Position numbers and translations under genes: made by a program
Shown here: positions 17,254-35,843 of the stretch, piece by piece
Position numbering within the stretch: position 1 is the stretch's first letter
Layout: the number at the start of each line of letters is the position of its first letter
The notes under the pieces: model-generated
Told to the model about the DNA's origin: nothing
The model's input: the letters and a program-made list of their open reading frames with translations, nothing else
Databases searched by the model: none
DNA from: an uncultured bacterium
GTDB taxonomy: Bacteria > Bacillota_I > Bacilli_A > RFN20 > CAG-826
NCBI GenBank assembly: GCA_949285665.1
Contig: CASDYC010000001.1
Location: forward strand, 5,376 to 69,375
Reading direction: 5' to 3'
DNA: 64,000 bases

Positions 17254-18360
17254 TTATACTAACTTATCAATTATGTCTTTATTTATATTTGGAAATAAAT
17301 GAGAATAAGTATCAAGAGTTTGTTGAGTTGAAGCATGTCTTAAGTGCTTTGATACAACTAAAATATTAACACCCTGGTTAATCATACGTGATGCCATTGA
17401 ATGCCGTAAACCGTGTTTTGTAATATGAGGAACTCCGGCAAGTTCAATATGAGCATCCATAACTCTTTTAATTGAAGTTCTTGAAGTGTGCTTAATAAAG
17501 AAAATATAATCATCTGGATTAGGGCAATTTTCTTCCTCATATATTTTTAACTCATCCATTAAGAAAGTTGGAAGTGTGACAGAGTTTGAAGAAGATGAGT
17601 TTTTAGTAGTTGCATCATGCCCATGCTTATCTAATTGGCGTTTAATAGAGATAGTTTTGTTTGCATAGTTTATATCTTTAAATTTAAGACCTAAAAGCTC
17701 TCCAATTCTTAAAGCGCCCCAGTAAGTAACTTCAAAAAGTAGTTTCCATTTTTTCTCATCTTCAGCAAAACTATTAATAAATTTGTTATATTCTTCCACA
17801 GTCCAAAATTGTAATTCTTTTTTAGGCTTTTTAGCTTCTTTAATTGGTTTTAAAAGAAGTTTGATTTTTCCACCCATTTCAAAAGAAAACATATCAAGAC
17901 TACAAGCATAGTCAATTACTGCTCTTAAAATAGCATAACCAAAATTAATCATTTTAGGGCATAAATCAACGCCTTGCATACTGACTTTATATTTATTTAC
18001 ACTTATTATAGATATCGCTTTATCAATAGGCTGTTTGATTTTAAAGTTAGGTTTTATATATTTGTTTATGAATAACTTTTGACTATATGCTGTTCCTTCT
18101 TTATTTGTTAGGTATTTTTCTTTAATATAGTCATTTAAGACATTATCAAGAGAATTTGCAACTCGACCATGGTAGTTTATTATTCTTTTCTTTTTATCTT
18201 CTTCAACAATTTCATCTTCAAGAAGTTTAAGTCTTTTTTTGCCAAACTCCGTAGTCCAGTTTTTATTTCTTATTTTAACTTTGGTAGTAGAACCATCGTA
18301 ATTATTAATATAGTATTGAATATAATATTGTTTTCTTTTTTTATCTAATATAATTGCCAT
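17254..18360 (-). CDS. int: tyrosine integrase (phage integrase family)
   Basis: 368 aa. C-terminal catalytic region HGLRHSMASRM...LRHASTQQTLDTYSHL with the R...HxxR...Y signature, plus ALRIGELLGL. Adjacent to attL. Confidence 0.85.
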   Translation of the reverse strand: MAIILDKKRKQYYIQYYINNYDGSTTKVKIRNKNWTTEFGKKRLKLLEDEIVEEDKKKRIINYHGRVANSLDNVLNDYIKEKYLTNKEGTAYSQKLFINKYIKPNFKIKQPIDKAISIISVNKYKVSMQGVDLCPKMINFGYAILRAVIDYACSLDMFSFEMGGKIKLLLKPIKEAKKPKKELQFWTVEEYNKFINSFAEDEKKWKLLFEVTYWGALRIGELLGLKFKDINYANKTISIKRQLDKHGHDATTKNSSSSNSVTLPTFLMDELKIYEEENCPNPDDYIFFIKHTSRTSIKRVMDAHIELAGVPHITKHGLRHSMASRMINQGVNILVVSKHLRHASTQQTLDTYSHLFPNINKDIIDKLV

Positions 18361-29322: not shown

Positions 29323-29994
29323 TTATAAGTTGTCATATGCTTGATCCATTTCTTTAAAGTTAAATAATTTAGTATTTAACATAACTGGTTGTTGTAAGTA
29401 ATTTAAGTTTGAATAATAGCAACCGCCAACTTTATAAAACTTGTTAATTAGTGATACGTAACCATCTTTTGTCATAATTGCTAACTTGTTATATTCGCCA
29501 ATTAAGTTTTTTATTAGTTGCATTTTGTTATATCGTTTATCAAAGTATAAATCATTACCGATAATCAAAGACAAGTAATCTTTAATAAAAGTCATTGTAT
29601 CGTTATAATTTACTTTTTGATTATAGCTACTTGTTAAATGAATGATTCCATTATGAGCTATTCCAATATTAGCCGTTGTTTTTAACTCACGCATACGTGC
29701 GTAATCGCTACAAAGTGGGTATGGATGGCACAACTCTTTTTTTGTTCCGCCCTGGGTTGATATTCTAAAGTGTAAGACAAGTGGTATTTCTTTAATTTTT
29801 AAGTTGTTATCACTTAATAACTTTTTAATATCTTTAAGTAAATCATCTAGCTTATCAAATCCCTTGTGGATGATTACTTGATTATTTACTGGGGCCATAT
29901 AGCCGGCCCCATCCCCGTTTCTTTCAATACATTTTTTTAATGTTTCAATACTTGGTAAATCTTGGTTTACTGGTTTATAGATAATTACACACAT
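29323..29994 (-). CDS. class-II glutamine amidotransferase-like Ntn hydrolase (YafJ/GATase_4-like)
   Basis: Starts MCVIIY, the Cys2 N-terminal nucleophile typical of GAT-II. 223 aa. Translationally coupled to the upstream amidoligase-like gene (ATG/TAA overlap at 29994). Confidence 0.55.
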   Translation of the reverse strand: MCVIIYKPVNQDLPSIETLKKCIERNGDGAGYMAPVNNQVIIHKGFDKLDDLLKDIKKLLSDNNLKIKEIPLVLHFRISTQGGTKKELCHPYPLCSDYARMRELKTTANIGIAHNGIIHLTSSYNQKVNYNDTMTFIKDYLSLIIGNDLYFDKRYNKMQLIKNLIGEYNKLAIMTKDGYVSLINKFYKVGGCYYSNLNYLQQPVMLNTKLFNFKEMDQAYDNL

Positions 29995-31244
29995 TATAAT
30001 TGTTCCCCTTCCTTTTCGCTTGCGTATGTGCGCATGAATAAGCCTTGTTTTCTAAAATAATTAATTACTTTTAAATCTACATTTTTAAGCATTTTTGATA
30101 AGCAATAAATCTTGTTAAATGGCACATTTTTAAGATTTTCAGCAATACCAGCGAATAAAAGAAAGCAGTTTTTCATCCATTGAGCATCTGCAACGCTTCT
30201 AAATATTCTTATTTCAAAAGTTGCTTTTGAGTTAATTAAACAACGATTGTGGTCTGAGTTTAAATAATCGGTTGCATTACAAGATAAATCAAGTCTTTTT
30301 ATTGCTTCGTGGTAGTCTTTAATTTCATCGTATGTATAAAACTTACAATAACGCATTGAGTTTTCATCTCTTTTTGAAAGTTTTATAAAGTCTTCCTTGT
30401 ATATAGTCATAAAGTAAGCAAGTTTTAAAAAGTTTATCGCTTGTTCTTTTGAGTTATCACCAAAGACAAGTTTTGATATGTGTAAATGAATACCAGCGCT
30501 TTTAACGTTGTCATCATGACCGGTTTTTTTCATAAAATCAGCGATGATATTAAAATCTAATTGCTCTAAATATTTTCTTGAAAATACTTGACTAATCATC
30601 TCAAAGCCATAAGTTAAAGAGCCATCCATTTCAAATTTAAAATGTGTTTTTCTAGTTTTTCCATTTAAGTTATAAAAATCATCGGTTACTCTTGCATAAT
30701 AGCGGTTGTCTTTTCTAACTCTTAAACGGCTATTGTTAAAATTATCGATTTCAATTTCAAAGCCGTAGCCCTTAAAGTTGCTTTCATCCATTGTCTCGTT
30801 GTCTAGTTTAAAATATCTAACCTTGCTATCTCTTGCATCATTGCCCCAACCGTTATAATCAGAGTGATAACCGTTAATTACATACAAGTTTTTATATTCT
30901 TGTTCAAAGCAAGTATTGCAATATCTTGTGTCATTGCCCATGTAATGAGATTGAGTTTGTAAGTCTTGTGGTGCAATCCATTTTCCGCATTTATCACATT
31001 TTCTAAAACCAATATCACGCATTGCACGCTCAAGCGTGTCTATATTATCGCTTGCGTATATAAGCGTTTCAGTCTCTAATGTAAGTCTTTCATGTTGGTT
31101 TGTGTAAGTAGTAGTATCTAAATCAATAACTATTGTGTTGCTATTAACAAATAAGCTTATTAATGCTTCTTGGTCGCTTGTTACTAATTGAGCAACGTAT
31201 GATGCGTAAGTTTTTTTAATAGTAATAACATTGTATTTTTTCAT
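29994..31244 (-). CDS. amidoligase-like protein (PF12224-like GS-fold) with an N-terminal Cys4 zinc ribbon
   Basis: Motifs GYGFEIEI (E.E strand), DGSLTYGFE (DGS) and SAGIHLHIS (GxHxH), recalled from the putative-amidoligase family. CDKCGKW...CNTCF zinc ribbon. AAGGGGA RBS. Confidence 0.45.
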   Translation of the reverse strand: MKKYNVITIKKTYASYVAQLVTSDQEALISLFVNSNTIVIDLDTTTYTNQHERLTLETETLIYASDNIDTLERAMRDIGFRKCDKCGKWIAPQDLQTQSHYMGNDTRYCNTCFEQEYKNLYVINGYHSDYNGWGNDARDSKVRYFKLDNETMDESNFKGYGFEIEIDNFNNSRLRVRKDNRYYARVTDDFYNLNGKTRKTHFKFEMDGSLTYGFEMISQVFSRKYLEQLDFNIIADFMKKTGHDDNVKSAGIHLHISKLVFGDNSKEQAINFLKLAYFMTIYKEDFIKLSKRDENSMRYCKFYTYDEIKDYHEAIKRLDLSCNATDYLNSDHNRCLINSKATFEIRIFRSVADAQWMKNCFLLFAGIAENLKNVPFNKIYCLSKMLKNVDLKVINYFRKQGLFMRTYASEKEGEQL

Positions 31245-31371
31245 AGTATTTTATTTTCCCCTTAATTTTCTGCTCATTTTGCTTTATAATTAAGAGTGCA
31301 AAAGGGCTTAAAAACTCTTGTGTAATCGCTTGTTTTTTCTAGTTTGCCGACTTGTTAAACGGGCGATTTTT

Positions 31372-31554
31372 TTATTGCTTATTGACGTCACCTTCGATTA
31401 ATTTAGCCAAATAAGCACTTTTTGATGGTTGACTTTCAATTTTATCTATTAAGTGTTGTTGTGTATCTTTTCTAAGCATTAATCGATAATATTTATAAGT
31501 CTTTTTCTTGTATTTATAATTGCTTTTATTATCTTTTCTTGGCGTTGTTTTCAC
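31372..31554 (-). CDS. small basic ribbon-helix-helix-like protein (paralog 1 of 3), GTG start
   Basis: KTYKYYRLMLRKD (beta strand), TQQHLIDKIES (helix) and SKSAYLAKLIEGD (helix) follow the Arc/MetJ/CopG pattern. Preceded by GGAAGGGGG. Directly upstream of the amidoligase gene. Confidence 0.4.
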   Translation of the reverse strand: MKTTPRKDNKSNYKYKKKTYKYYRLMLRKDTQQHLIDKIESQPSKSAYLAKLIEGDVNKQ

Positions 31555-31584
31555 CCCCTTCCTTAAGTTGTAGGGCTTCCGCCC

Positions 31585-31680
31585 TTGACTTATACGTTTT
31601 AGTTTCTTATAATAATTGTGAACTTGGTAATCCAGAGATTAATTGTGATTCTAAACTCATAATTAACTCTGGTTTTTTTA
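31585..31680 (+). promoter_or_regulatory. promoter-like site plus intrinsic terminator mini transcription unit (unit 1), antisense to the minus-strand operon
   Basis: TTGACT, a 17-nt spacer and TATAAT at 31585-31613. CCAGAG...CTCTGG hairpin at 31632-31672 followed by T7. Confidence 0.4.
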
Positions 31681-31776
31681 TTTTTCTTTACCTTAAGTCT
31701 CACATTTATAATTAAACGCTTTCGTCAAGGGTTGCCCTATTAGTAAGTAAGTCATATTTAACAACCCCTTACACGT

Positions 31777-31822
31777 ATGTATGCAAGCGTGTTTCCTTGC
31801 TTGCAATAATAATTTAACATAG
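31777..31822. repeat. conserved hairpin block (copy 1): TGCAAGC gtgtttcctt GCTTGCA plus AATAATAATTTAACAT
   Basis: 33 nt identical to 32278-32310. A diverged third copy lies at about 32793-32835. Confidence 0.5.
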
Positions 31823-31856
31823 GCGTTCACCTAATGCAACATATATTTTTATTTTT

Positions 31857-32035
31857 TTATTGTTGCATGTCTTTTTTGATTAAGTTTACTAGATAATCAT
31901 TTTTGCTTTTTTGTTTTTCTATTTTCTCTATTAAGTCTTTTTGATTATCGATTCTTAATCTTAGAGTGTAAGATTTATAAGTCTTTTTGTTGTATCGATT
32001 TTGTCTTATCGTTGATTTTTTGGCGATATTTTCAC
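31857..32035 (-). pseudogene. RHH-like paralog 2; apparent frameshift at an A6 tract near the 5' end
   Basis: The GTG frame gives VKISPKNQR-stop. The +1 frame continues KKSTIRQNRYNKKTYKSYTLRLRIDNQKDLIEKIEKQKSKNDYLVNLIKKDMQQ, which is homologous to paralog 1. One extra A would restore the frame. Confidence 0.3.
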
Positions 32036-32045
32036 CCCCTTCCTA

Positions 32046-32119
32046 TTGATTTTTAAAACTCTCACTGCTATAATGATGCTGAGATATTTGAGATGACTAA
32101 TGTTTAGTCATCTTTTTTT
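32046..32119 (+). promoter_or_regulatory. promoter-like site plus intrinsic terminator mini transcription unit (unit 2)
   Basis: TTGATT, a 17-nt spacer and TATAAT at 32046-32074. 9-bp hairpin AGATGACTA/TAGTCATCT at 32091-32113 followed by T7. Confidence 0.4.
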
Positions 32120-32277
32120 ATCTCATGGATTAATAAAATTAACAAGATTAATGTAATAATTAAATCCATATAATTTATTAACCTTTCTACTATTAAGCAT
32201 TAAACCGGTGTAAGTTTTTTAAGTATGTTTAATAGCAGTGAGAGAAACTTTACACTTTATTAATGTAATAGTCTCAT

Positions 32278-32323
32278 GCGTATGCAAGCGTGTTTCCTTG
32301 CTTGCAATAATAGTTTAGCATAA
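32278..32323. repeat. conserved hairpin block (copy 2)
   Basis: GTATGCAAGCGTGTTTCCTTGCTTGCAATAATA is identical to copy 1. Confidence 0.5.
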
Positions 32324-32396
32324 TGAAACATTATTGCAATACCTTTTTTAAAAATATTTTAATTTTTATTTTTTATTACTGAAGTAATAAGATTTT

Positions 32397-32567
32397 TTAT
32401 TTTTTTAAATCGTTTTGAATTAGCGATAAAATATAAGCGTTTTTTGATTTAACACTTTCTAATTTTTCTATTATATCGCTCTGGGTATCTTTTCTAACTT
32501 GTAATAAATAACGCTTGTATGTCTTTTTTTTATATTTATTACTTGCGATTGTTTGCCTTGTTCCCAT
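32397..32567 (-). CDS. small basic RHH-like protein (paralog 3), ATG start with AAGGGGGA RBS
   Basis: 56 aa: MGTRQTIASNKYKKKTYKRYLLQVRKDTQSDIIEKLESVKSKNAYILSLIQNDLKK. Below the 60-aa cutoff of the ORF track. Same beta-alpha-alpha pattern as the other two. Confidence 0.4.
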   Translation of the reverse strand: MGTRQTIASNKYKKKTYKRYLLQVRKDTQSDIIEKLESVKSKNAYILSLIQNDLKK

Positions 32568-32583
32568 GATTTTATATTCCCCC

Positions 32584-32662
32584 TTGACAAAATAAAAACC
32601 CGTGCCATATAATATTAATGAAAGATTTAGATATTAGAGTTTAGTCATCTAATATCTTTTTT
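32584..32662 (+). promoter_or_regulatory. promoter-like site plus intrinsic terminator mini transcription unit (unit 3)
   Basis: TTGACA, an 18-nt spacer and TATAAT at 32584-32613. GATATTAG/CTAATATC hairpin at 32630-32656 followed by T6. The loop shares GTTTAGTCATCT with unit 2. Confidence 0.4.
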
Positions 32663-32935
32663 ATTTCAATTAATATCTTACGTATTAGAATTAAAAGTAA
32701 AATCTTTTTCATTCTAACGCATCCCCCTTTCTAGTTTTAATCCTAGCTCAAGATTACTAACTAGCGGTTGCCTTATGATGCTATGACACGGGTGCAAGTA
32801 AGCTTTTTCCTTACATGCATTAATAGTATGACATAAGTATATACACATTACAATATATTTTTAATTATTTTTTTATTTTTTTATGCGTGTTTGCGTATGC
32901 TTTCGCGTGCGTGTGTGCGTATGCGTGATTATGTA

Positions 32936-33020
32936 TATATTCTTTTAGATTTATATTATTCTTTCAGATTTATATTATTCTTTGAGATTTATATATATTC
33001 TTTCATATTTATATTTTTAT
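32936..33020. repeat. four tandem ~20-bp iterons (tattctttNagatttata-like)
   Basis: attcttttagatttat / attctttcagatttat / attctttgagatttat / attctttcatatttat in a non-coding stretch. Confidence 0.5.
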
Positions 33021-33316
33021 ATTGTATTTTCTATATCTATTTTTCTTTTTATTTATATGGCAATTTCAAAAATCTTAATTTTTAAAGATGAAAAAGATTA
33101 GAATAAAAAAAGATAATTTGATTAGATTATAAAAGAGGCGATTATTAATTTTTCTATATCATATATCACAATCAAGGTGTTTGATTTTCTTATTTCTTTT
33201 CATCCATCCAGAGCGTTAAAAATTGGCTTAAAATCTTATATTTTTATGTGGTGTCTTTTTCTTGTATTGCTCACATATCTATAAAACACCGATAAAACCG
33301 ATATTTTATAAAGTTT

Positions 33317-33340
33317 GGGGGTTAATTTGGGGGTTAATTT
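33317..33340. repeat. 2x GGGGGTTAATTT, related to the att-site GGGGGTTATTT triplets
   Basis: gggggttaatttgggggttaattt. The same G5TTA(A)TTT motif occurs 3 times in attL, 3 times in attR and once at 61089-61100. Confidence 0.5.
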
Positions 33341-33416
33341 TAGATGATTTATTGGATGTTGCTTCCTCTGGAAGCAAAACAACAACAAAAAAATTTTTAA
33401 ATTTTCTATATATTGG

Positions 33417-33453
33417 AACCCCCACCCGGAAGGCAAATTCACCCCGGGGCGGC
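33417..33453. other. GC-rich palindromic island upstream of the terminase genes (candidate cos/pac region)
   Basis: aacccccacccggaaggcaaattcaccccggggcggc in otherwise about 20%-GC DNA, including the CCCCGGGG palindrome. Preceded by the GCTTCC tct GGAAGC hairpin at 33361-33375. Confidence 0.3.
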
Positions 33454-33658
33454 TAAAATGCAATTATTGTTCTTTTTAAAATTTTCCTTATTTTTTCCTA
33501 TTTTTTTAAATTTTATTATTTTTTTTATATTTTTTTAATGTAAACTTTTCTTGCATTTTTGTCAATAAATGTTGATATTTGTAAACTTTTATGTTTAAAA
33601 TGCAACATTTTATTTACTTTTTGCAAGTCATAATAAAAACTTGCTATTTTTAGTATAC

Positions 33659-33688
33659 TTGACATTAAGTTAGTTAATGATTATATTG
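33659..33688 (+). promoter_or_regulatory. late-operon promoter candidate
   Basis: TTGACA, an 18-nt spacer, then TATATT. The -10 element overlaps the first ATG of the ORF at 33677, so the transcript may be leaderless or start at the ATG at 33695. Confidence 0.35.
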
Positions 33689-33694
33689 TATTTA

Positions 33695-34039
33695 ATGAAA
33701 GATATTGGCGTAGTTATTTTATCAACTTACGAAAAAAACATCCTTAATAAAAAACAAAATTCTAAGGCTGATTTAATTGTCCGTGATGAGAAGACTTTAA
33801 CTGTTCTTCAAAATATGCTTAATCAAAAAGTAACTCAAAAATTAGAAGATGGCACAAGTCTTAATGCAACTGCCAAAGAGTTAATTATCGCTTCAGCAAT
33901 TCGAGATGCGATAAACAAAGGAAGTTTTGAAAAGTTAAAAGTTTTATTAGAAATAACCGGTGAGTTTAAAAAAGAAGAAACCCATAATCTTAATATTTCA
34001 CTTGTTGACCAATCTTTAAGAGAAAGGGCCCTAGATTAA
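33695..34039 (+). CDS. small terminase subunit candidate (by position)
   Basis: About 115 aa, immediately upstream of TerL. The ORF track starts it at 33677. Confidence 0.3.
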   Translation: MKDIGVVILSTYEKNILNKKQNSKADLIVRDEKTLTVLQNMLNQKVTQKLEDGTSLNATAKELIIASAIRDAINKGSFEKLKVLLEITGEFKKEETHNLNISLVDQSLRERALD

Positions 34040-34040
34040 T

Positions 34041-35843
34041 ATGTCGCTTGCAGATGAAAGACTTAAAGAATACGATAATGTCTTAACAGTTAATTTTCTA
34101 GGCAAAAAATACCCAGTTTATGTTTTAATGGAACATCTTTTAAAAGTGACTGATAAGGATGCTAGATGTGTTAAGTTTGTTTTATGGGATGAACAAATCG
34201 AACTATATAAAGAGATATGTAAGCAAAGACTAGAACATAAACCAGTTAGAATAAATATTTTAAAAGCTCGACAAATTGGCTATTCGACTTTTATTGCTGG
34301 TCTTTTATTTATTATTACTCTTTTCACTCCAAATATAAGAACTGGTGTTATTGCCGATACTGAAGCCCATGCTAAGAATTTATTTTCAAAGTATGAATAT
34401 TTTTATAGACACCTAGATGATAATAACCCAAATATTCAAAATAAGGACATTCCAGAAAACGACTTACTTACATATAAGCCAAAACTTGATTATGCAAGAA
34501 ATCAAACTTATATGAAAACAAAATATTCAAACTCTGAAATAGAAGTCTTAACAGCCGGAGATAATGCTGGTAGATCTAATAACTTCCATCTTCTTCATTG
34601 TAGTGAATGTGCATTTTATCAAAATCTAAAACTAACACTTAATTCACTTTTAGAGACAGTTTCAAATAACAATCTAAATTCTATGATATTTTTAGAAACT
34701 ACGGGCAATGGTTTTAACGAATATAAAGAGCGTTGGGACAAGGATTTAAGTGGTAAGACTTCATATAAGGCGTTCTTTTCTCCTTGGTGGAAGCATAAAG
34801 AATATAAAACAAAAGGACAACTTCCAAGATTAGAAGAATGGCTTTATCAAAAACAAAGCGAGTTAAATTTATCTGATGAACAGATGAATTGGATTTGGAA
34901 TAAATATTTAGATAAGGGTGATAAAGCACTCACTTTACAAGAATACCCATTTACTCCAGTTGATGCGTTCTTATCTACTGGTAATTGTCTATTTAATGCA
35001 GAAATAGTAGCAAAAAGAAAAGAAGAAATAATTAAAGAGATAGAAAATGTTAAAACTGGACAATTTATATATGAACCACATTATTCTCAAAACGGAGATA
35101 GAATTGAACTTTTAAATACAGAATTTGTAGAAAGTAGAAATGGACTTATTAAGATTTATAAAGAACCAATAGATGATCATCCTTATGTTGGAGTATGCGA
35201 TCCAAATGACGAAGGAAGTGATTATAACGCAGTTGTAATTATTGATAACTTTACCGGAGAACAAGTAGCAAGTTTTATAACTCGTGAATTAACTCATGAT
35301 AAAATTGCTTATCAGTTTTATTTACTTGGAAAAAAATATAACGATGCACTTTTATCTAATGAAATGAATAGAGGTGGTGCGATTATGGATTATTTAATTA
35401 AACTCGGCTACCCAAGACTTTATGTTAGACAAGACCAAAGTTATGAAAATTATAAACAATCCGTTAAATCAGAATTTGGTCATAAAATCACAAAGACAAA
35501 TAGAAATCCAGCAATTGAAAGTTTTAAAATCGCATTTAAAGAAAATCCAAAAATGATAAATGACTTTGATACGATTTGTCAAATGGAAACTTTTTCAAAT
35601 GTAGAACACGTTTCAAAAGATGGCCGTGTTACTTATAAAATTGAAGCAAGTGGCGGAAATCACGATGACTTAGTTATGGCTATGGCTGGTTATTACATTG
35701 TAAGAAATCAACAAAGTTTCTTGCCAAAAAGAGACGCAAGTAGAATTAAAGAAGCTTCAAAATTAGCGATGTTTGAAGATAACAAACATAAAAAAAGTCA
35801 AAAGAATATTTTATTTACAACATTTTCAGGGATTAGGTTTTAA
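34041..35843 (+). CDS. terL: terminase large subunit
   Basis: 600 aa. N-terminal ATPase with KARQIGYSTFIAG (Walker A-like) and a C-terminal nuclease region. Followed by the portal gene. Confidence 0.75.
   Translation: MSLADERLKEYDNVLTVNFLGKKYPVYVLMEHLLKVTDKDARCVKFVLWDEQIELYKEICKQRLEHKPVRINILKARQIGYSTFIAGLLFIITLFTPNIRTGVIADTEAHAKNLFSKYEYFYRHLDDNNPNIQNKDIPENDLLTYKPKLDYARNQTYMKTKYSNSEIEVLTAGDNAGRSNNFHLLHCSECAFYQNLKLTLNSLLETVSNNNLNSMIFLETTGNGFNEYKERWDKDLSGKTSYKAFFSPWWKHKEYKTKGQLPRLEEWLYQKQSELNLSDEQMNWIWNKYLDKGDKALTLQEYPFTPVDAFLSTGNCLFNAEIVAKRKEEIIKEIENVKTGQFIYEPHYSQNGDRIELLNTEFVESRNGLIKIYKEPIDDHPYVGVCDPNDEGSDYNAVVIIDNFTGEQVASFITRELTHDKIAYQFYLLGKKYNDALLSNEMNRGGAIMDYLIKLGYPRLYVRQDQSYENYKQSVKSEFGHKITKTNRNPAIESFKIAFKENPKMINDFDTICQMETFSNVEHVSKDGRVTYKIEASGGNHDDLVMAMAGYYIVRNQQSFLPKRDASRIKEASKLAMFEDNKHKKSQKNILFTTFSGIRF

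Follow-up and report, generated by a model that had tools for sequence, protein, structure and literature searches.

The subject of this study is a 64,000-nucleotide stretch of the chromosome of an uncultured member of the Bacilli (contig CASDYC010000001.1; host chromosome ~25% GC), referred to below as the window, and more precisely a set of very short transcription units in the accessory region of the prophage that it contains. The HtpG protein encoded in the window is identical to one from an NCBI/ENA contig, and the closest named relatives, with ~60% identity, come from metagenome-assembled genomes of Bacilli and Erysipelotrichaceae. The prophage includes an integrase gene (17254-18360) and a TerL gene (34041-35843), and has a minus-strand accessory block lying between its plus-strand early genes and the plus-strand terS/terL genes. 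Three small genes for ribbon-helix-helix (RHH)-like proteins are followed in this block by an Amidoligase_2 gene and a GATase-like gene, and the region from 31260 to 32880 is made up of three diverged tandem modules of ~480-540 bp each (repeat D1). Each module carries, on the plus strand, a promoter closely followed by a hairpin and a T-run and, to judge from the sequence, the three are very probably independent mini transcription units for short hairpin RNAs antisense to the RHH strand.

The three promoters, which a preliminary description of this DNA had proposed, lie where it placed them and have the hexamers it gave: TTGACT-17-TATAAT in module 1 (31585-31613; score 11/12), TTGATT-17-TATAAT with a TG extended -10 in module 2 (32046-32074; 10/12) and TTGACA-18-TATAAT in module 3 (32584-32613; 12/12). 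They had been described as abutting the complement of the RHH ribosome-binding sites; more exactly, the -35 hexamer starts 16-18 nucleotides (nt) from the RHH start in modules 2 and 3 and ~30 nt from it in module 1. The hairpin follows the -10 hexamer at 15-18 nt in all three units and the T-run begins 60, 40 and 44 nt from it in modules 1, 2 and 3, respectively. The predicted small RNAs (sRNAs) of ~61 nt (31620-31680; hairpin 31632-31672, T7 run 31674-31680), ~40 nt (32081-32120; hairpin 32090-32114, T7 run) and ~43 nt (32620-32662; hairpin 32629-32657, T6 run) agree with the ~40-60 nt originally estimated. All three units thus have the hairpin and T-run that had been ascribed to them, but the terminators are not uniformly strong: the hairpins of modules 1 and 2 have free energies (dG) of -17.9 and -12.0 kcal/mol (z-scores of -4.8 and -4.1 relative to shuffled sequences), while that of module 3 is AU-rich and weak (-9.5 kcal/mol, z -2.1). 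Two motifs had been thought to be shared by the loops. One of them, GTTTAGTCATCT, is indeed common to the sRNAs of modules 2 and 3, and is the complement of the sequence GAT GAC TAA that ends two tiny open reading frames (ORFs) described below; the other, GAGTTTAG, was rejected because it occurs on opposite strands in modules 1 and 3, at chance frequency.

In this DNA of ~25-28% GC, promoter-like hexamers on their own occur in the region at chance level (24 found vs 22 expected). It is the combination of promoter and terminator that is significant: when both strands of the entire 64 kb were searched for a promoter scoring 10/12 or better, a hairpin with a dG of -8 or lower and a T5 run within 75 nt, exactly these three units were returned, compared to a mean of 0.4 in 20 simulated Markov-2 windows, i.e. 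~7-fold more than expected. A scan of positions 30500-34500 against Rfam at a permissive E-value gave nothing relevant, just spurious miRNA and snoRNA matches.

We collected more than 30 related loci from ENA/Logan contigs and IMG/VR phage contigs; a DNA search of the INPHARED phage collection gave no match, and scans of GTDB genomes and JGI metagenomes with RHH patterns, TerL and an exact 33-mer of the leader yielded no useful relatives. The close relatives (L004-L008 and L048-L050) possess the three leader types of the window plus a fourth. No variation is seen in their antisense hexamers, spacers or hairpin stems (for the promoters of modules 1 and 3 in L004, L005 and L008, the latter also read directly in L048-L050, and for that of module 2 in L048 and L050); it is the loop and 5' tail of the sRNA that vary. 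The more distant relatives (L001, L020/L022, L024 and 21 IMG/VR phages of what we call the P0011 subfamily) have wholly different sequences with an equivalent leader architecture: a sense promoter ~255-290 nt upstream of the RHH start, then a 5'-terminal hairpin, a long-range helix and a tiny ORF, and an antisense promoter that scores 9-12/12 and begins 14-40 nt ahead of the RHH start. Overall, this architecture recurs in ~16 sequence-unrelated leader types at more than 30 loci, in an equivalent position upstream of homologous RHH-like genes, and we therefore take the units to be genuine cis-antisense sRNA genes. Conservation of the hexamers in related elements had been named beforehand as a test of the proposal, and they are kept in all close relatives and in the sequence-unrelated phage versions.

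These data also bear on whether the hairpins and T-runs might simply be plus-strand terminators that insulate the minus-strand cassette from read-through of the early operon, with the hexamers being incidental in AT-rich DNA. The chance-level frequency of the hexamers taken alone would fit such a role, as would the plus-strand operons that flank the RHH cassette on both sides and the existence of another weak plus-strand hairpin and T-run at 32373-32406. It would not explain, however, why every hairpin is preceded, at a fixed distance of 15-18 nt, by hexamers of 10-12/12, why promoter and terminator occur jointly ~7-fold above the expectation for the window, or why the hexamers are retained in ~14 of the 16 sequence-unrelated leader types at a constant distance from the RHH start, and we consider pure insulation very unlikely. 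The additional hairpin is AU-rich (TTATTAC-TGAA-GTAATAA), leads into a long T-rich stretch, is located just behind the stop codon of RHH-like gene 3 and might serve as a stop to antisense read-through between modules.

The sense-strand features of the modules, i.e. the leader with its promoter, hairpin, helix and tiny ORF, were absent from the preliminary description. On the minus strand, each module consists in order of a promoter, a 5' hairpin, a tiny ORF preceded by a Shine-Dalgarno (SD) sequence, the stretches complementary first to the sRNA hairpin and then to its promoter, and the SD and start of the RHH gene, giving a structured leader of ~250-280 nt; no sense-strand terminator was found between these parts and the RHH gene in any of the three modules. 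The sense promoters all have a TG extended -10 and a palindrome in the spacer: TTGCAT-17-TAAATT in module 1 (31811-31839; imperfect palindrome TAGGTGAACGCCTA, 31817-31833), TTGCAA-16-TAAACT in module 2 (32312-32339; ATAATG-TTT-CATTAT, 32318-32333) and TTGTAA-17-CATACT in module 3 (32825-32853; GTATATAC, 32831-32847). The 5'-terminal hairpin of module 2 (GCAAGCaaggaaacacGCTTGC, 32284-32305) is identical in sequence to that of module 1 (31783-31804; both are copies of repeat D3); that of module 3 lies at 32794-32818, and L008 and L048 have a different hairpin at the equivalent place.

A long-range helix is predicted to close each leader. It is clearest in module 2 (32059-32244), where the arms at 32232-32244 and 32059-32071 are complementary at 13/13 positions (inverted repeat I14) and surround the tiny ORF, the 3' arm being inside the antisense promoter spacer. 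The corresponding helices of modules 1 (31573-31737; arms ~31724-31737 and 31573-31589) and 3 (32599-32792; arms ~32782-32792 and 32599-32609) are organized similarly, such that the 3' arm of every helix maps to the antisense promoter, in its spacer or -35 region. The leader folds have z-scores of -5.7, -7.2 and -7.0 for modules 1, 2 and 3; in these predicted folds, the tiny ORF has a mostly paired SD or AUG and the RHH gene a more open SD. Applied to 20 P0011 leaders of mixed type, RNAalifold recovered the 5' hairpin only. Because MAFFT had misaligned the 3' arm by one column between P0011 leader types, we assessed the long-range helix by direct reading and by comparing the duplex energies of cognate and non-cognate arms. 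Cognate 5' and 3' arms form better duplexes (mean of -25.7 vs -15.5 kcal/mol, with the cognate arm ranking first in 10 of 15 cases), which amounts to covariation at the level of the family. Helix variants at the equivalent position in the P0011 subfamily include AAAGACACGG/CCGTGTCTTT, AAACAAACGGCGC/GCGCCGTTTGTTT and AAGGGAGA..CGATG/CATCG..TCTCCCTT.

Long and highly structured leaders of this kind would be compatible with the suggestion, already made in the preliminary description, that the hairpins are attenuator-like elements acting on the RHH mRNA, or parts of riboswitch-like leaders. The strand of the T-runs argues against it: on the mRNA, an A-run precedes each hairpin and no run of U's follows, the T-runs being on the plus strand only, and nothing in Rfam matches. 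Attenuation is thus highly improbable, and, together with insulation and chance, counts among the weak explanations of these units.

The tiny ORFs of modules 2 and 3 encode peptides of 21 amino acids (aa) (MDLIITLILLILLIHEIKKDD, SD GAAAGG, 32104-32169) and 23 aa (MKKILLLILIRKILIEIKKILDD, SD AAAGGGGGA, 32641-32712), respectively. Their stop codons lie inside the hairpins, so that the sRNA of module 2 is complementary to the final 16-17 nt and stop codon of its ORF and that of module 3 to the final 22 nt; complementarity is perfect across the 3' end of the ORF, the stop codon and ~25 nt beyond. The module 3 peptide differs among relatives mainly by synonymous changes, and by these only between L048-L050 and the window, with the stop codon kept in frame despite the variability of the surrounding loop. 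The module 2 homologue of L048-L050 (MKFILKLILLIVLIHEIKKDD) retains the frame and the length of 21 aa despite insertions and deletions just upstream. This pattern indicates that the ORFs of modules 2 and 3 are real coding sequences. The 20-aa ORF of module 1 (MTYLLIGQPLTKAFNYKCET, 31693-31755) is of doubtful coding status: it is non-hydrophobic, is not overlapped by the sRNA, and in the L008 copy has two amino-acid changes and has lost its stop codon.

Hydrophobic peptides of this kind recur in other leader types. The maximum 12-residue Kyte-Doolittle hydropathy of the module 2 peptide is 3.72, in the top ~1% of small ORFs of the window, compared to just 0.76 for the module 1 ORF. Eight independent leader types encode SD-preceded peptides of 21-28 aa with a core of 12-16 Ile/Leu/Val residues and a Lys-rich tail (for example MDLIITLILLILLIHEIKKDD, MSETIITLVLFLLIVMTIKKR, MQELIIILILIVLILNKKKWQ, MEYLLVLVIILLLIERLIEKSGENKKKK and MKKPLKKAIIILLIIAIITALVVISK), with maximum hydropathies of 3.4-4.2; values of 3.0-3.4 are reached by just 0.5-2.5% of the small ORFs of the window. 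The P0011 subfamily (L027-L047 and L010-L014) has ORFs of a different kind, 32-43 aa long and amphipathic, with alternating hydrophobic and charged residues and the motif [IL]DIKKG or FE[IM]xI. In the well-sampled type C ORF of this subfamily, 14 of the variable codons have synonymous changes only and 3 change the amino acid, a ratio indicative of purifying selection. These ORFs represent a second, distinct small-protein family in the equivalent position of the leader. None of the tiny peptides matched Pfam or NCBIfam, or any known toxin family in them. Two further observations concern the relationship between these ORFs and the sRNAs. A 12-nt stretch present in both the module 2 and module 3 sRNAs (32102-32113 and 32639-32650, plus strand) is complementary to both peptide mRNAs (AGATGACTAAAC), so that cross-talk between the two modules is possible, and L043, which like L004 (see below) is a decay variant, has a frameshift in an A-run of its tiny ORF that is the complement of the sRNA terminator T-run.

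Taken together, the modules have the anatomy common to type I toxin-antitoxin loci of Gram-positive prophages: tandem diverged copies within a prophage, an arrangement often seen with such loci, a hydrophobic ORF on a folded mRNA, a strong convergent promoter and a short hairpin RNA covering the ORF at its 3' end. A hydrophobic, SD-bearing ORF of <60 aa is present in modules 2 and 3 and lacking in module 1; in silico, all have a predicted small RNA of 40-61 nt with its own promoter, complementary to the putative toxin mRNA; and the predicted folds combine pairing of most of the SD or AUG with a long-range 5'-3' helix whose arms are type-specific. Based on this correspondence, our proposal is an antitoxin role for the sRNA, with the RHH-like protein acting as an autorepressor expressed from the toxin transcript. 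With a probability of about one half, then, these are type I toxin-antitoxin-like cassettes that share a transcript with an RHH-like repressor regulating its own expression, arranged in tandem and shuffled as modules.

In the mechanism that we envisage, each plus-strand unit would be a gene for an antisense RNA of ~40-60 nt, encoded in cis and driven by a strong promoter of the sigma-70 type that is probably constitutive. The minus-strand transcript would start at a promoter containing a palindromic operator, begin with a protective 5' hairpin and, after the long-range 5'-3' helix and the tiny ORF, run into the RHH gene. The peptides of modules 2 and 3 (21-23 aa, hydrophobic, with Lys/Asp tails) would be membrane-active type I toxins, whose synthesis could be held in check at three levels: the RHH-like protein would repress its own promoter, which is also that of the toxin; folding of the mRNA would keep the toxin SD and AUG paired; and the abundant sRNA would bind the leader through its loop and 5' tail, leading to RNase III cleavage and/or locking the inert fold so that no peptide is made. 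Convergent transcription may add an element of interference. Upon loss of the prophage or shut-off of its transcription, the sRNA and repressor would decay and the peptide would be produced, resulting in addiction or abortive infection. Module 1 appears to be a toxin-less version of the cassette or one whose toxin has decayed.

Several considerations weigh against this proposal. No match to a known type I toxin or antitoxin family was found in Rfam, Pfam or NCBIfam. Module 1 and one module of L001 have non-hydrophobic, poorly constrained ORFs with no sRNA overlap, and the P0011 peptides are amphipathic rather than transmembrane-like, so that a toxin may not be the common denominator of the family. 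A length of 21-23 aa is at the short end for membrane toxins, and ORFs rich in Ile, Leu and Lys are favoured by AT-rich genomes. The weakness of the module 3 terminator hairpin (z -2.1) is a further difficulty. Lastly, the toxin candidate is co-transcribed with a regulator and cargo genes, an arrangement that is unusual among type I systems and that a regulatory-leader reading fits just as well.

In the latter reading, the sRNAs would serve purely for antisense control of the RHH-like gene and of the cargo that follows it, much as in plasmid copy-control circuits (R1 CopA/tap/CopB and pMV158 CopG/RNAII) or with P22 sar, the tiny ORF encoding a leader peptide or an innocuous small protein; duplex formation, RNase III processing of the leader and interference between the convergent promoters would then set the levels of repressor and cargo. 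In its favour, the universal parts of the family are the sense promoter, 5' hairpin, long-range helix, sRNA unit and RHH gene, and the tiny ORF varies in kind, being hydrophobic, amphipathic or, as in module 1, doubtful. The lack of a sense terminator between the tiny ORF and the RHH gene points the same way, and the antisense promoter physically overlaps the region of the RHH SD, which favours interference. In L004 (3760-4010), the sense promoter, 5' hairpin and start of the peptide ORF of module 3 have been lost and the sRNA unit and RHH gene are kept. On the other hand, the sRNAs end ~35 nt upstream of the RHH SD and leave both the SD and start codon uncovered, and the tiny-ORF stop codon is separated from the RHH start by 54-144 nt, a gap too wide for translational coupling of the classical kind, which we set aside on these grounds. 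Repeated strong selection for hydrophobic peptides, together with purifying selection, would also be unexpected for mere leader peptides. We view expression control as the main rival to the type I proposal, possible but less likely.

Returning to the type I proposal, the closest documented layout to these modules is, by analogy, that of yonT/yoyJ/SR6 in the SPbeta prophage of B. subtilis, where a polycistronic toxin mRNA is overlapped at the toxin 3' end by an antisense RNA and undergoes RNase III-dependent decay (PMC5848175). Like this locus and bsrG/SR4, bsrE/SR5 and txpA/RatA, the modules belong to a prophage whose host is a Gram-positive bacterium of low GC; in bsrG, a further effect of SR4 is to make the SD more tightly sequestered (PMC5848175). 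Like yonT/yoyJ/SR6, moreover, they have a small candidate toxin ORF on a polycistronic mRNA, a convergent cis-antisense RNA over the toxin 3' end, between the toxin and the next gene, and an expected mode of action via RNase III and/or a structural change at the SD. There are also clear differences. Compared to the group as a whole, the peptides are shorter (21-28 aa vs 38-59) and unrelated in sequence, and the sRNAs measure ~40-60 nt vs 100-220. Unlike in yonT/yoyJ/SR6, the downstream gene encodes an RHH-like regulator and not a second toxin, the sRNA falls short of the SD of that gene, and the whole module appears to be a swappable leader between an operator-promoter and a repressor gene.

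The par locus of the E. faecalis plasmid pAD1 (fst RNA I/RNA II) has convergent toxin and antitoxin promoters and an antitoxin of ~65 nt that is mostly terminator hairpin, and the toxin mRNAs of par, hok/sok or aapA/IsoA are stabilised by a stem at the 5' end and hide the ribosome-binding site through long-range pairing; tandem paralogues are also known. The modules share convergent promoters, a short hairpin RNA, a 5' stem, long-range pairing and tandem paralogy with these systems. In contrast to par, they have no direct-repeat interaction sites and no similarity to Fst in Pfam or NCBIfam. We also considered a shared bidirectional terminator like that of par and rejected it for lack of a U-run on the sense strand; the sense RNA instead reads through into the RHH gene.

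Resemblance to the immI region of phage P22 (the arc-ant operon, mnt and sar), to which the units had been likened, is loose. In both cases, the promoter of a short antisense RNA is found within an operon with a small RHH-type repressor in a temperate phage, with the prospect of interplay between convergent promoters. The P22 sar RNA covers the ribosome-binding site of ant, downstream of arc, whereas the sRNAs described here lie upstream of the RHH gene, over the 3' end of the tiny ORF, and leave the ribosome-binding site free; there is no antirepressor gene, and the RHH-like proteins are not detectably related to Arc/Mnt (hhalign probability vs Arc of 0.1). Plasmid copy-control circuits offer another parallel, in the form of CopG (RHH) and RNAII of pMV158, and of CopB with CopA/CopT and the tap leader peptide of R1. 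The common points are a small autorepressor combined with a ~50-90 nt hairpin antisense RNA on a structured leader with a short ORF, and the diversification of specificity-determining loops. Here, however, the target is not a replication gene and the peptides are under selection for hydrophobicity; unlike in pMV158, where the repressor gene precedes the regulated gene and the antisense RNA covers the translation start of the latter, the order is tiny ORF, sRNA target and RHH gene, with the sRNA upstream of the repressor gene, and the distance from the leader ORF to the next start codon is too great for coupling.

The third component of the modules, the RHH-like protein, belongs to an unannotated family that we defined by iterated profile search and that comprises 191 proteins, with no Pfam match, PHROGs of unknown function only and a single NCBI record, from an Erysipelotrichaceae metagenome-assembled genome. 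The three minus-strand genes of the window encode 60 aa from a GTG start (gene 1, 31372-31554), 56 aa from an ATC start (gene 2, 31857-32027) and 56 aa from an ATG start (gene 3, 32397-32567); genes 1 and 2 were detected with the hidden Markov model. Gene 2 has no canonical start: the ATC is 5 nt past a strong SD (GGGGGTG), an in-frame TAG occurs six codons upstream (32045-32043), and the 56-codon ORF is otherwise intact. As the RHH genes of 7 of 15 leader types start with ATC, ATT or ATA, non-AUG initiation may be a trait of the family, and gene callers miss or mis-start such genes.

As for the identification of these proteins as RHH regulators, it is the predicted topology that supports it. 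An AlphaFold2 model of the gene 3 product (pLDDT 82) has an extended segment at residues 12-29 and helices at 30-38 and 42-55. This extended-helix-helix arrangement fits an RHH protomer and is the basis of the RHH label, a monomer model being unable to show the dimeric sheet. Sequence and fold searches detected no similarity to known RHH proteins; with hhalign, the family profile gave a probability of 0.1 against Arc and 0.2 against CopG, the latter matching through the SKNAYI/SKSAMI motif alone. In the window, L004 and L027-L047, the palindromes in the sense-promoter spacers (further examples being TGATATTAATATCA and ACATATACATGTATATGT) change together with the residues of the predicted beta-strand of the downstream RHH-like protein, suggesting that they are orthogonal operator-repressor pairs. 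Module 2 of the window and module 2 of L008 have a common spacer and RHH-2 protein with different leaders in between, and conversely one leader type occurs with up to four different spacer-protein pairs. The simplest reading is that the RHH-like protein would bind the palindrome and autorepress at the sense promoter, and that the peptide and sRNA leader is an exchangeable insert.

The system lies outside Rfam, Pfam, NCBIfam and PADLOC, and in a non-exhaustive literature search we came across no account of a type I-like module that shares its transcript with a dedicated repressor. It is tempting, if speculative, to see in these loci an unrecognised and widespread three-component cassette of phages of low-GC Bacilli, in which a membrane-peptide toxin, a very short antisense RNA antitoxin and an RHH-like autorepressor (often with an AUC, AUU or AUA start) would be expressed from one structured transcript. 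The toxin and sRNA leader would be exchangeable between the operator-promoter and the cognate repressor, and tandem orthogonal cassettes would be both addiction or abortive-infection devices and expression heads for variable cargo.

Were the type I interpretation correct, it would add a new toxin-antitoxin-like family, with new peptides, new sRNAs and a new family of small DNA-binding proteins, in uncultured Bacilli of ~25% GC and gut bacteria resembling Erysipelotrichaceae, and in their phages. Its design would be a hybrid, in which an RHH-like protein represses its own transcription and antisense control follows at the post-transcriptional level, both acting on a single transcript, with parts that recombine as cassettes. 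Even if the peptides were non-toxic, the loci would still represent a clear, conserved case of antisense-controlled leaders in phage accessory operons. The more than 30 natural variants, with their apparently orthogonal operator/repressor and sRNA/target pairs, could serve as regulatory parts, and the family illustrates how many small genes, be they for peptides of 21-28 aa or RHH genes with non-AUG starts, are missed by annotation pipelines.

The surroundings of the modules are variable. The cargo behind the RHH array (29323-31244 on the minus strand of the window) differs among related prophages: the Amidoligase_2 and GATase-like genes are found in the window, L004, L048 and L050, DUF7659 and others in L005, and a string of ~80-aa genes with ParE in L009. 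The number of modules per array also ranges from 1 to 4. Given this variability, the site next to terS behaves as a hot spot for accessory genes; PADLOC matched neither the RHH genes nor the cargo to a known defence family. Between module 3 and terS (32882-33015 and 33314-33340), there are three repeat elements, all conserved in L004, L005 and L008: a CGTG-rich repeat (32882-32927), a 19-bp tandem repeat (TATATTATTCTTTCAGATT) present in 4.3 copies (32934-33015) and two copies of TTTGGGGGTTAA. These elements might mark a packaging site, drive late transcription or form an array for protein binding.

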